64,000 nt of DNA, taken from positions 352,001-416,000 of the forward strand of contig CAWBNQ010000001.1 of NCBI GenBank assembly GCA_963790205.1, given 5' to 3'. The position numbers and the translations under genes are program-made. The notes under the pieces are model-generated. The model was not told the origin of the DNA. It saw only the letters and a program-made list of their open reading frames with translations, and did not search any database. Of this stretch, positions 26,426 through 31,043 are shown piece by piece (within the stretch, counting starts at the first letter, position 1; each line of letters opens with the position of its first letter). The stretch is from Nitrospirota bacterium. GTDB lineage: Bacteria; Nitrospirota; UBA9217.

Positions 26426-27758
26426 CAGGCCGCTGAAAAAGTGGCCTTCAGTTTAAAAAATTCTATTCGGAGCTTGATTTTTATCCTACTGCAAAGCCTA
26501 TGACACACTTTGTAGCTCATTCAAGATCGCCTTTCGGCACCCATTATCGGGATTCTACTGCGCTTTTGCTATGTAGCAGCCGCAGTTCGCCGTTGGATAT
26601 TTACTATTCGCAGCAGGTTGTATGCAGCTCCGACGAACAAGGCTTGAAGGTGGGTTCGATCTCTTCCCTTGTACCGTGTCCGCCTGAAACCGCCGATGCT
26701 CTTGAGCCATCCGAAGATCTCTTCCACCCGTTTTCGGATTCGCTGGCTGATGTTGTATCCTTCGTGCCGCGTGGTGCGTCCATCTATGGCAGAGCCGCCT
26801 CTTCTTTCGGTGTTGGCCGCAACATGCGGCGTGATCTCTCTGCCCCGCATGGCCTCAACAAAGCCCTGGGTATCGTAGCCCTTATCGGCACCGATGGTCT
26901 TGGGTTTAACGCGTTTCCGCGCCTGACGGGTAAGCATATCCTTGGCCGCCTCCCGTTCCGCATCACCCGTTGCCGGGGTAACGGTGATGTCGACCAGCAG
27001 GCCGTTTCGGTTCTCCATCAAGGCATGGGCGCCGAAAGAAAGCTTAGCCTCCTTGCCCGCGCTCTTCTTCATCAAACGAGACTCGGGATCAGTGGTAGAA
27101 GCATGAGTCTTGTTCGACCGTTTCTCACCCCGAAAGTTCACCGTGGGATTTCCCGGATCATCGTCCGTCGTCGGGCGGTCCGAAGGGTCCTCGTCCTTGG
27201 GACGGAAGCTCTTCAGACTGGCGCAGGCCTCAATAAGGCTGCCGTCCACCGTAAAATGATCATCCGAGAGCAGCCCGCCTTTCCGGGCGATGTTAACCAC
27301 ACGATCAAAAAACTTCACGGCCACCCGATGTTCCAGAAGCCGATCCCGGTTCTTCGTGAACGTCGTGGGATCGAAGGACGACTCTTCCAGGTCCATATCC
27401 AAAAACCAGCGGAAGAGAATGTTATAATCCACCATTTCGCAGAACTGGGTTTCGGAACGCACCGAGTACAGGGCGATCAAGAGCTGGGATTTCAGCAGCC
27501 TCTCCGGCGGGATCGACGGCCGCCCCATGTTGCTGTACATGGAGTCGAAGACCGGCGAAAGCTCTGCAAGAACCGTATCCGCATGGGCTTTGATCGCCCG
27601 CAGAGGATGCTGGGCCGGGACACGCTGTTCAGGAGAAAAGTAACTGAACATCCCGCTCTGAATCTCGTTTTCACCGCGCATGTGGCCTCCTTGTCAACTG
27701 CCGTTGCGCCACTATACGCATTTACATCACGTTTGAAAAGGACTTTTTCAGCAAACTG
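26426..27758 (-). mobile_element. IS5-family insertion sequence (1333 bp)
   Basis: Inverted repeats caggccgctgaaaaagt / actttttcagcaaactg; CTAG target duplication at 26422-26425 and 27759-27762. Confidence 0.93.
26569..27681 (-). CDS. IS5-family DDE transposase
   Basis: GRPSIPPERLL, FRWFL, VDGSLI, STTDPE, GADKGYD, RKRVEEIFGW. Confidence 0.95.
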   Translation of the reverse strand: MRGENEIQSGMFSYFSPEQRVPAQHPLRAIKAHADTVLAELSPVFDSMYSNMGRPSIPPERLLKSQLLIALYSVRSETQFCEMVDYNILFRWFLDMDLEESSFDPTTFTKNRDRLLEHRVAVKFFDRVVNIARKGGLLSDDHFTVDGSLIEACASLKSFRPKDEDPSDRPTTDDDPGNPTVNFRGEKRSNKTHASTTDPESRLMKKSAGKEAKLSFGAHALMENRNGLLVDITVTPATGDAEREAAKDMLTRQARKRVKPKTIGADKGYDTQGFVEAMRGREITPHVAANTERRGGSAIDGRTTRHEGYNISQRIRKRVEEIFGWLKSIGGFRRTRYKGRDRTHLQALFVGAAYNLLRIVNIQRRTAAAT

Positions 27759-28462
27759 CTAGAGGGAGAATATGACGTAATCATGCCCGATGCTAGGGGT
27801 CATGGAAAGTCGAGCGTGCCTGACTATGGATACCGATACGAAGACCATGCAAACGATGTCGTCGGTCTTATTAAGGCTCTCGGATTTCTTCCTCCGATTC
27901 TGATCGGACACTCCATGGGAGGTATGACTGCAGCCGTGGTGGCAAGTCGTAACCCAAAGCTACTCCGTGGCCTAATCTTGGCTGATCCAACGTTCTTGAG
28001 TCCAAAAGTTCAGCGCGAAGTTTGCGATAGCGATGTGCCCGATCAGCATCGGCGAATTCTCAATACATCATTGGATGAAGTGGTGGCAGAAGCCCGAATT
28101 AGACACCCTGATCGGTCATCGGATACCATCGAGCTAATCGCCCGGGCACGACTTCAAACTAGTATGGCGGCTTTCGACGTTCTCAGGCTACCAAACCCTG
28201 ATTATAAGCAATTGGTGAGTGCGGTTGATGTTCCAAGCCTGCTCGTATTTGGTGATAAAGGTGTGGTTTCGTCTGTTGTTGCCGAAGAGCTGCAACGTCT
28301 TAATCCGAGATTTCAGGTTGACCAGATCCCGGAAGTTGGCCACGGACTCCACTATGACCGGCCCGAGCACTTTGCGGCTGTCGTCAAATCCTTCTTATGT
28401 TCAATTGGTACAGTAACTGAGCCACGCGGAACTTTGTAACCTATAGGGTCACGTCTTGTAAC

Positions 28463-28491
28463 TTGACAATTGCGTTGTGCTGTGATATCGT
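28463..28491 (+). promoter_or_regulatory. Sigma70 promoter of the RAYT gene (near-leaderless)
   Basis: TTGACA-17 nt-TATCGT with extended TG, 9 nt before the ATG at 28501. Confidence 0.65.
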
Positions 28492-28500
28492 CGCGACATT

Positions 28501-29372
28501 ATGGCCCGTCCCCTTCGCATAGAGTATCCCGGTGCTGTTTACCACGTCACCTCCCGCGGGAACGAAAAGAAGCCTGTCTTCAAGGACGAGCAGGACCGTC
28601 TGAACTTCCTCAATACTCTCCAGCATGCCGGCAAACGCTACAACTGGATCTGCCACGCTTATTGTCTCATGACCAACCATTACCACCTTCTCATCGAGAC
28701 CCCGGACGGCAATCTATCCATCGGCATGAGACAACTGAACGGCGTCTACACGCAGCTCTTTAACAATTGGCATGGCAGGACCGGTCACCTGTTCCAGGGA
28801 CGATACAAAGCCATTCTCATCCAGAAGGACAGCCATCTCCTTGAGGTTTGCCGGTATGTGGTCCTGAATCCTGTGCGGGCCAAGATGGCTGAGACGCCGG
28901 AGGAGTATCGCTGGTCCAGCTACCCGGCTACGGCGGGCAGAGCAAAGCCCCATCCGTGCCTCACCACAGACTGGGTATTGGGCCAATTCAGCGGGAAGCG
29001 GGGCAAGGCGGAGCAAGATACCGGCAGTTCGTCAAATGGGGGATCGGCAAACAATCCGTCTGGACCGACGTGCGGGGCCAGACGCTACTCGGTGAAGAAG
29101 ATTTTGCAGACCGCTTTATAGATCATCTCAGGAAGCATAAAGAGGTGCCCGAGATCACCCGGAGTCAAAAATACCTGAAGAGGCCGGCCCTGGAAAAGCT
29201 GTTTTCGGAAGACATTTTACGGAATAAGCGCAAGCGGAACCGGCGCATAGCCGATGCGGTAGAACGCCATGGGTATCTTCAGAGAGAGCTCGCGGATCAT
29301 CTGAGATTGAACTATGCAACCGTCAGCAGGTTGGTGAGCGCTCAAGAGCAAATATCAAATAACAAGACGTGA
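28501..29372 (+). pseudogene. REP-associated tyrosine transposase (Y1_Tnp + C-terminal HTH), frameshifted
   Basis: MARPLRIEYPGAVYHVTSRGN, HUH motif NHYHLL, GHLFQGRY, RYVVLNPVRA, YRWSSY. A 1-nt loss at ~29019 (EQ[E]YRQFVKWG) separates the HTH tail (QRELADHLRLNYATVSR); the stop codon lies inside the right inverted repeat. Confidence 0.88.
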
Positions 29373-29374
29373 CC

Positions 29375-29843
29375 CTATAGATTTGCTATAGATTTGCTAT
29401 AGATTCTATAGATTCCTATAGATTCTTTACCGCCATGACACACCGACGGATGACGCCGAAACCGCTCAGCGGGATAATAGAAGAAGTCAACACCGCCCTC
29501 CGCGGCTGGGTTGGCTATTTTCATTACCGCAACAGCAGCAAGGCACTTCAGCACCTCAAGTTCCATGTTGAAGCGCGAGTGCGCACGCATCTGCGGAAGC
29601 GGCATAAGATCAAAAGTAGGGCCACGGGGTTTACCAGGTTCACGAACAGGTCTTTGTACGAGAAGTATGGGCTCTATAAAGTGCCGACAACAGCGGGCTG
29701 GACGAAAGCGCATGCCTTGCGATGAAGAACATCGGAAAGCCGTGTGCGGGAAAACCGCATGCACGGTTTGATGAGGGAGGGCTGGTCAATATGACCGTTC
29801 TCTACTCTACCTATAGATTCTCCTGACCCTATAGATTCTCCCC
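29375..29843 (+). repeat. Seven CTATAGATT units stacked at the right RAYT end
   Basis: Units start at 29375, 29386, 29397, 29406, 29416, 29811 and 29829. Confidence 0.92.
29427..29810 (+). mobile_element. 5'-truncated group II intron (maturase X-domain tail + domains V and VI)
   Basis: ORF 29435..29725 has EVNTALRGWVGYFHYRNS and LYEKYGLYKVP. It is followed by domain V aagccgtgtgcgggaaaaccgcatgcacggttt (AGC triad) and domain VI ending ctactctAC with a bulged A. Confidence 0.92.
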
Positions 29844-30371: not shown

Positions 30372-30374
30372 ACG

Positions 30375-30430
30375 TTTTAACCACGCCGTCGAGAGGGTCA
30401 TTGAGGGGGCCCCTCACGGCGGCGTTGGGG
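30375..30430 (+). other. Integron attC site 2
   Basis: tttTAAC cacgc cgtcgag ... ctcacg gcggc GTTGGGG, 56 bp, immediately after the antitoxin stop. Confidence 0.85.
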
Positions 30431-30964: not shown

Positions 30965-30984
30965 ACCGCAACTCGACACAATGA

Positions 30985-31043
30985 TCCCAACCACGCCGTC
31001 GAGAGGGTCGCTGAATGATGCGCCCCTCAGGGCGGCGTTCCTG
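30985..31043 (+). other. Integron attC site 3
   Basis: tccCAAC cacgc cgtcgag aggg ... cccctc agg gcggc GTTCCTG; its R'' (tcccaac) is complementary to the cassette's leading GTTGGG. Confidence 0.85.

Follow-up and report, generated by a model that had tools for sequence, protein, structure and literature searches.

How did a truncated group II intron come to lie within a stack of short repeats at the end of a transposase-bearing element? The question is raised by positions 28436–29843 of the window, the whole stretch of 64,000 nucleotides analyzed here. The first-pass annotation described seven CTATAG units, a perfect 19-bp inverted repeat, a Y1 transposase gene, and a 5′-truncated group II intron ending at 29810, and the positions of all of these were confirmed. 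The sequence CTATAGATT had seven matches in the window (at 29375, 29386, 29397, 29406, 29416, 29811, and 29829), compared with a mean of 0.14 and a maximum of 2 in 100 shuffles. The perfect arms of the inverted repeat occupy 28441–28459 and 29362–29380, and the enclosing arms of 36 nt are 86% complementary. In a profile search, the ORF at 28501 matched Y1_Tnp (E = 2e-12) and the ORF at 29435 matched GIIM (E = 8e-13). The Rfam model Intron_gpII matched 29735–29810 over model positions 1–77 of 77; because this match spans the model to its end, the last base of the intron adjoins CTATAG at 29810/29811. The annotation had also read all units as beginning exactly at CTATAG. This is one reading, but TG precedes two of the units and TGACC precedes one, and in relatives the units start inside the element in 27 of 71 cases. 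The features of the locus are as follows.

28436..28446, minus strand: left tip, 10–11 nt outside TGACC; one copy in the window, two copies in sequencing runs X1/X2
28441..28473, plus strand: left terminal inverted repeat, with the perfect 19 bp at 28441–28459 and a conserved AGACnTGACC core on the minus strand
28501..29372, plus strand: TIRYT gene (Y1/HUH), encoding 290 aa where intact, with the motifs NHYH and YVVLNP; the window lacks one base near 29017
29348..29374, plus strand: core of the right terminal inverted repeat, ending in TGACC (the IBS1 of the intron) and containing the stop codon
29375..29426, plus strand: inner stack of five tip units of 11, 11, 9, 10, and 11 nt; three units (−21 nt) in X1/X2
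29427..29810, plus strand: 5′-truncated group II intron, the last 384 nt of an endonuclease-less element of ∼1913 nt; joined to the tip at +11 with ≤1 nt of microhomology
29435..29725, plus strand: maturase (domain X) remnant of the intron protein (GIIM match)
29735..29810, plus strand: intron domains V and VI (Intron_gpII match)
29811..29843, plus strand: outer stack; a 13-nt tip unit that is the 3′ exon of the intron, its first C being IBS3, then TGACC and the final tip

The surroundings of the locus contain other mobile features. A DDE transposase gene (DUF772 and DDE_Tnp_1) at 26569–27681 lies just upstream of an alpha/beta hydrolase gene (27783–28439), whose stop codon overlaps the left tip and whose homologues end a few codons earlier. 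A BrnT toxin–antitoxin pair and several orphan genes are followed by attC-like hairpins at 30373–30430, 30983–31040, ∼31860, and ∼32715, which suggests an integron cassette array with no adjacent integrase. Three integron integrases are encoded elsewhere in the genome of the window (hereafter G000).

Identity of the Element

Judged by its sequence, the element is a TIRtron of TnpA-Y1 subclass 2.1, because its motifs, length, and terminal repeats agree with those of both groups. The Y1 core matched PF01797, NF047646 scored above its cut-off, and NHYH and YVVLNP were read in the translation; an HTH_23 match at transposase residues 249–281 (E = 0.041) fell below the cut-off, and a PDB sequence search with the transposase gave no useful match. 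Terminal inverted repeats flank the gene, and the end motif was found at 120 ends in 78 related loci. In TIRtrons or TIRYTs as described (PMC3733652; equivalent to subclass 2.1, PMC6006769), as here, a RAYT-like Y1 gene lies between terminal inverted repeats, the 3′ repeat overlaps the gene, the protein has NH[YF]H and Y---NP motifs and a long C-terminal tail, and there are no REP hairpins. The repeats of TIRtrons have a GGGGWSAS motif, of which the window may carry a variant: it has GGGTCAC, with TA replacing the first G, and the fourth G is present in 56 of 115 related ends. The first-pass annotation knew of no named system with this layout, but the element itself falls in the named TIRtron/TIRYT family (PMC3733652); Y1 transposases of subclass 2.1 occur in ∼15% of the species sampled in one survey (PMC6006769). 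Two other assignments were rejected. A REPtron should have GTAG-tagged REP hairpins, whereas no short hairpin repeats were found beside the gene and the ends are terminal inverted repeats. A member of IS200/IS605 should have a short TnpA, a Y---Q motif, and asymmetric hairpin ends, whereas this element has 290 aa, Y---NP, and symmetric ends.

G000 contains five copies of the element in differing surroundings, three of them with an unbroken 290-aa frame; their identity of 97–98% compares with a mean intragenomic identity of 49% for subclass 2.1 (PMC6006769). Tip copies occur at five further ends in this genome, one of which has nine units (C1:543220–543320). The outer edge of this nine-unit stack is adjoined by what we take, from its terminal sequence, to be an ISL3-like end (L196:1–519). 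An insertion sequence of ∼1.6 kb lies at the same TTGT step in the left repeat of two TIRtron copies in G000 (L196:631–2231 on C1 and L199:1209–2809 on C14), with a 4-bp duplication, and ends similar to those of this insertion sequence were found at C3:182151 and C1:218662. In another genome, a homologous toxin–antitoxin pair is preceded by the stacked end of a GGCACC-type repeat family (L182, upstream of position 670).

Independent Contigs and Strain Variation

We compared the locus with Logan contigs (short-read assemblies) of runs X1 and X2, both from one study. These contigs span the stack-to-intron joint and the intron-to-outer-stack joint and hold the same junctions as the window, so the stack and its intron junctions are not the assembly artefact for which the first-pass annotation had allowed. 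Two X1 flank pieces (∼0.7 and 1.3 kb) have 4–5 base differences each from the window. The X1/X2 allele has an inner stack that is 21 nt shorter, an extra 10-nt unit at the left end, and a 59-nt skip within the intron piece. When rebuilt, it contains three inner units, of which the two closest to the intron are shared with the window, as are the outer units. The number of units therefore varies between strains at both ends, in a comparison of two alleles only, in which loss and gain of units are indistinguishable. On the same alignments, the transposase ORF of the window is frameshifted or mis-called near 29017, where one base is absent relative to four genome copies and to runs X1, X2, X5, and X8.

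The Group II Intron and Its Target Site

Relatives of the intron were collected from genomes of the phylum, with matches in 51 of the 401 searched, from 41 metagenome loci, and from pattern scans of 64 family genomes. The piece in the window shares 89% identity with the 3′-terminal 385 nt of a full intron of 1913 nt. Full copies are 1912–1972 nt long and encode an RT/maturase with no endonuclease domain: the full-length relative L110 scored above the cut-off of TIGR04416 and has the domains RVT_1 and GIIM only. The copy in the window retains domain X alone of this protein, together with RNA domains V/VI and the terminal AC, as in mobile En-minus group II introns. No full copy of this intron was found in G000: the other Rfam match there (C3:664578), next to an attC-like hairpin, represents a different intron, and the RT on contig C5 is a fragment. 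The best plasmid matches were at 65–68% over a third of the length or less. In a viral collection, 11 loci fit the 3′ pattern; none aligned to the intron and all were dropped. On contig C3 of G000, at L200:1200–3150, an attC-like hairpin is immediately followed by a second group II intron that is apparently complete and resembles group IIC-attC introns.

The 5′ pattern of the intron gave 35 matches, five of which were chance hits; among the 30 real junctions, 22 follow GACC, four follow GTCC, and four follow other sequences. The first base of the 3′ exon is C in 76 of 77 cases, as found with a pattern that admitted C or T and, for metagenomes, one that admitted C alone. The copy in the window has no domain I, and in relatives the EBS1 loop was read against the target as GGUCA/TGACC, as GGACGU/ACGTCC (L145 and L166), and as GGACA/TGTCC (L088), so that EBS1 changes with the target in all three GTCC copies that were readable. 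The pairing of EBS1 with the element end that had been suggested is thus seen in full-length relatives and co-varies with the target. Because intact relatives sit between GACC and C, and because EBS1 co-varies with the target, 29810/29811 is an ordinary retrohoming junction. The precision of this joint, which had been emphasized in the annotation, stands, but a role of the transposase is not needed to explain it, the joint being the normal site of the intron.

Position of the Element End and Structure of the Tip Stacks

The end census used the best 78 of 568 confirmed related loci, which gave 120 ends, 115 of them distinct and usable, the loci being mutually related. A tip copy was present within 100 nt at 34 of the 115 ends (anchor +1), compared with 0–4 of 111–113 at control anchors 50–300 nt further out and 0–1 of 115 at anchors 40–60 nt inside. 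Stacks are therefore enriched at homologous ends relative to outward controls at least 50 nt away. Together with the strain-variable number of units, this bears out the proposal that the end is a site joined again and again.

The flanks were compared for 177 motif-defined ends, of which 28 had an unoccupied flank homologue among the sequences gathered. In all eight ends whose unoccupied homologue was ≥97% identical, foreign DNA starts 10–14 nt beyond GACC; most of the lower-identity homologues agree with +10 to +14, and three put the joint at +2 to +4. Because flank homology begins only +10 to +14 beyond GACC, the repeated 9–13 nt is, on this comparison, the element's own semi-conserved tip and not flank. 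The earlier statement that the units copy the downstream flank finds no support, since the tip is absent from unoccupied homologues and is non-target sequence. Both flanks were recovered in one unoccupied target for one of 65 two-ended elements, with ∼110 nt lost and no duplication. The possibility that CTATAG is a target-site duplication was rejected, given that the C14 copy differs between its two ends and that unoccupied homologues have no tip. For the element in the window, homologues of the hydrolase gene on the left and of the toxin–antitoxin genes on the right diverge before the tips, and the joints could not be placed.

Unit parsing, with a search span of 55 nt, covered 71 junctions in 42 stacks among 197 motif hits, some of which are chance hits in G000. 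The outer edge of a unit lay at 7–13 in 67 of the 71 junctions, with a maximum of 17. The inner edge lay at 0 (+1 to −2) in 44, at −4 to −7 in 21, and deeper, to −33, in six. The joints had neither overlap nor gap in 35 cases and a gap >0 (untemplated bases) in 19. The base after position 0 was T in 57 and C in 56 of the 115 ends. From these distributions, the units are likely anchored at their outer edge, with a cut at about +11 and not at GACC^C; a fixed outer edge with a tail into the element is the pattern expected from a nick at the terminus with inward extension. A primase-made tip, considered on the basis of primase start triplets, was rejected, as such a primer would run into the element.

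Truncated Introns at Element Ends

Among 84 distinct intron 3′ ends, 16 belonged to 5′-intact copies, 16 were cut by contig ends, five were too short to align, and 47 were scored as truncated. Sixteen of these 47 were dropped (three of other lineages, five mis-scored long-domain-VI variants, five back-to-back, two internally deleted, and one duplicate). The remaining 31 pieces keep 20–831 nt, with a median of 127. In eleven of them, the 5′ joint is with an end motif and its tip, directly at 10–15 nt in eight and by way of a stack in three, so intron fragments do recur at homologous ends, as had been anticipated; at the other 5′ joints, there was no end motif in 16 and the result was ambiguous in four. 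An end motif lies 8–15 nt upstream of a random genome position 0.3% of the time, and since enrichment near the target is expected under any model, the spacing alone is informative. An AAGAC-type repeat is present in six of the 11 end-joined pieces, and an adjacent transposase gene was confirmed for the window and L008 only. The tips on the two sides are identical in four pieces (the window, L008, L115, and L147) and different in seven. On these alignments, related bacteria repeatedly show the end-tip-intron fragment-tip layout. Joining of the intron piece through microhomology was rejected, with 0–1 nt in the window and none evident in nine aligned joints.

Of the intron 5′ ends, three of 30 were 3′-truncated, whereas loss of the 3′ terminus is the usual form of group II intron decay (PMC4496777), opposite to the bias found here. 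In one 3′-truncated case (L319), a 5′ piece of the intron carries an element end joined into it in reverse orientation, which means that ends do join into introns already in place. Two other arrangements were observed. At L137, L143, and L267 (G239:C6 near 832170), two intron 3′ ends lie back to back with a perfect domain VI palindrome, each with its own tip, an arrangement possibly made when a short cDNA switched templates at the hairpin of domain VI. At L121:228–326, an internal 75-nt intron piece with neither intron end follows two tip units at a TIRtron right end.

Proposed Mechanism and Alternative Explanations

From the directly observed anatomy, non-target tip, boundary distributions, strain variation, intron target site, and recurring layout, we infer a series of nicking, extension, re-ligation, and capture. 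In this account, to which we give somewhat less than even chances, the true end of the TIRtron lies 10–13 bases outside TGACC and the stack consists of copies of this tip, which would arise through re-sealing, and the intron piece would be an unfinished cDNA sealed in the same way. The HUH enzyme would nick the strand that enters the element with its 5′ end, at about +11, and would remain on this element 5′ end as a phosphotyrosine. A polymerase would extend the flank-side 3′-OH inward and mostly halt at 0 or −5, the expected seat of the enzyme on the repeat, and re-ligation would add one unit beside the innermost tip. Intron RNA would be reverse-spliced between TGACC and C on the other strand; reverse transcription from the flank side, primed by the transposase nick or by a nascent replication strand, would proceed through the tip and 384 nt of intron and then stall. 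The stalled cDNA 3′-OH, joined to the held element end, would give the order end-tip-fragment-tip, and further units would be added after the capture of the intron.

The nick-extend-rejoin part of this account is supported because G000 has no full intron, yet the strains differ by two right inner units and one left unit. Capture of cDNA is supported because all 31 truncated pieces are ≤831 nt, with 16 5′-intact copies in the same set, and because 11 are joined to an end plus tip. However, seven of the 11 have a different 3′ tip, which would need another end or a later rearrangement and speaks against capture by the same end. Inner edges are most frequent at exactly 0, which is also the intron site, and a stall alone does not account for this; outer edges scatter over several bases, in contrast to the precise cuts of IS608-type elements. 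Further points against the account are L319, the 16 of 31 pieces with no end motif at the 5′ joint, and the lower-identity homologues with a joint at +2 to +4. As for what makes the stacks, the evidence points to the transposase, because stacks occur with no intron or Ku match and are rarer beyond intron 3′ ends. Among ten distant genomes with stacks (completeness not given), five had no intron match and nine had no Ku match. Large stacks are also present in G103, a genome that is 100% complete, in which Ku gave no match and the intron is represented by a 5′ remnant only. Tip copies were found beyond 11 of 77 intron 3′ ends and at 34 of 115 plain ends (p = 0.015, a value that overstates the significance since the loci are related; the two sets also differ in taxa).

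The strongest competitor, which we nevertheless regard as rather unlikely, dispenses with any coupling of nick and reverse transcription. A full intron would have homed into the TGACC of an outer unit, and the inner end would later have been joined inside the intron by an adjacent deletion, made by the transposase, with loss of the first ∼1530 nt. This explanation accounts for the window as simply as cDNA capture does. The 27 units that start at −4 or deeper rebuild a target, ends join nearby DNA at +10 to +14 (with the ∼110-nt loss and no duplication in the target of one element), and the seven different-tip cases and L319 fit. It does not sit well with the retention of ≤831 of ∼1913 nt in all 31 pieces, with the small number of 3′-truncated pieces (3/30 5′ ends, in searches that differ in scope), or with several breakpoints at domain V/VI edges (20, 35, 45, and 77 nt), where an RT could pause.

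We consider it considerably less probable that a staggered double-strand break, in which reverse splicing or the transposase cut one strand at 0 or −5 and the other was cut at +9 to +13, was filled in and then sealed by Ku/LigD, a course that would duplicate the tip and now and then trap a partial cDNA. The stacks with no Ku match in nine of the ten distant genomes and in G103 argue against it, as do the end-joined fragments in G135 and G257 (90% and 63% complete, with no Ku match) and the inner edges to −33, which would need many cut sites. In its favor, both the maximum at exactly 0 and the untemplated bases found in 19 of 71 junctions would follow from it, and Ku genes are present in G000. 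The three genomes with same-tip cases (G000, G099, and G248) all encode Ku, for which the base rate is 37/64, and end-joining thus remains a rival for the capture step.

The first-pass annotation had taken GACC^CTATAG as a repeatedly used cut-and-join site; in this version, the HUH enzyme would cut there, the element-side 3′-OH would copy the flank outward to variable lengths, and the enzyme would re-ligate it. Although 44 of 71 units begin at or beside position 0, and those of the window mostly read so, this is now a very unlikely course of events: 27 of 71 units begin inside the element, none has an outward tail past +17, the tip is non-target sequence, and the nearly equal counts of T and C after position 0 leave no conserved C^T step. 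Simple slippage during replication, or an error of assembly, suggested by the short tandem form of the units and by possible single-base errors in the assembly (29017), is the least credible explanation and largely refuted already, as independent contigs hold the junctions, the duplications are confined to the tip (34/115 vs. 0–4 at ≥50 nt outward), and overlap and gap are both absent from 35 of the 71 joints.

Comparison with Known Systems

A search by title and abstract of the openly available literature on introns with RAYTs or terminal repeats, truncated introns, and tandem duplication at such ends did not find this layout. The accessible descriptions of TIRtrons and subclass 2.1 (PMC3733652, PMC6006769) mention no 10–13 nt non-target tip, tip stacks, or end introns, and give no cut site or mechanism; their supplements or Figure 9 may show flanks. 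For these transposases, the scars described here predict that the entering strand is nicked 9–13 nt beyond the repeat and then rejoined to 3′ ends that have been extended.

The nick-extend-rejoin account resembles the amplification of BIMEs by TnpA(REP) (PMC3333891, PMC8266576) in its HUH cleavage, 5′-phosphotyrosine, and strand transfer to a free 3′-OH, and model 7B for TnpA(REP) likewise has a unit added when a nicked strand is extended and joined again (Ton-Hoang et al., 2012, PMC3333891). TnpA(REP) cuts single-stranded REP hairpins at C^T by means of a GTAG guide, and its units are whole BIMEs (PMC3333891, PMC8266576), whereas the units here are TIR tips of 9–13 nt, and no hairpin or guide was found at these ends. 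With regard to the intron, RmInt2 of Sinorhizobium meliloti (PMC4615759) is also an endonuclease-less group II intron that homes into the inverted repeats of a mobile element, with two targets per element. Its host is the insertion sequence ISRm17, and the accessible account of it (PMC4615759) describes no stacks or tip-flanked truncated copies.

An extension of our account is that an En-less intron lineage has specialized on TIRtron ends and borrows the HUH nick, ∼11 nt outside TGACC on the opposite strand, as its nuclease and primer source, the transposase ligating stalled cDNAs into a polarized record of attempts. The cooperation suggested in the first-pass annotation, with the RAYT nick serving the intron RT, would thus involve a nick ∼11 nt farther out than GACC^CTATAG and on the other strand. 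We regard this as unlikely, though conceivable, and nascent-strand priming, the known route for endonuclease-less introns, argues against it. If the intron does use the HUH nick, this would be a new primer source for endonuclease-less introns and a case of a retroelement exploiting DNA transposase chemistry; if not, the locus would be an ordinary instance of one mobile element decaying within another. The relevant comparison is with Ll.LtrB, an En+ intron primed from a cut in the bottom strand that usually lies 9 nt downstream of where the intron inserts (PMC5010178). The protein of the present intron differs in having RVT_1 and GIIM only, and introns of this endonuclease-less kind are thought to use nascent lagging strands. 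Nevertheless, the element end lies at +9 to +14 on the same strand as the bottom-strand cut of Ll.LtrB (PMC5010178), and this match between the element terminus and the +9 cut of endonuclease-bearing introns keeps the idea of a borrowed nick alive.
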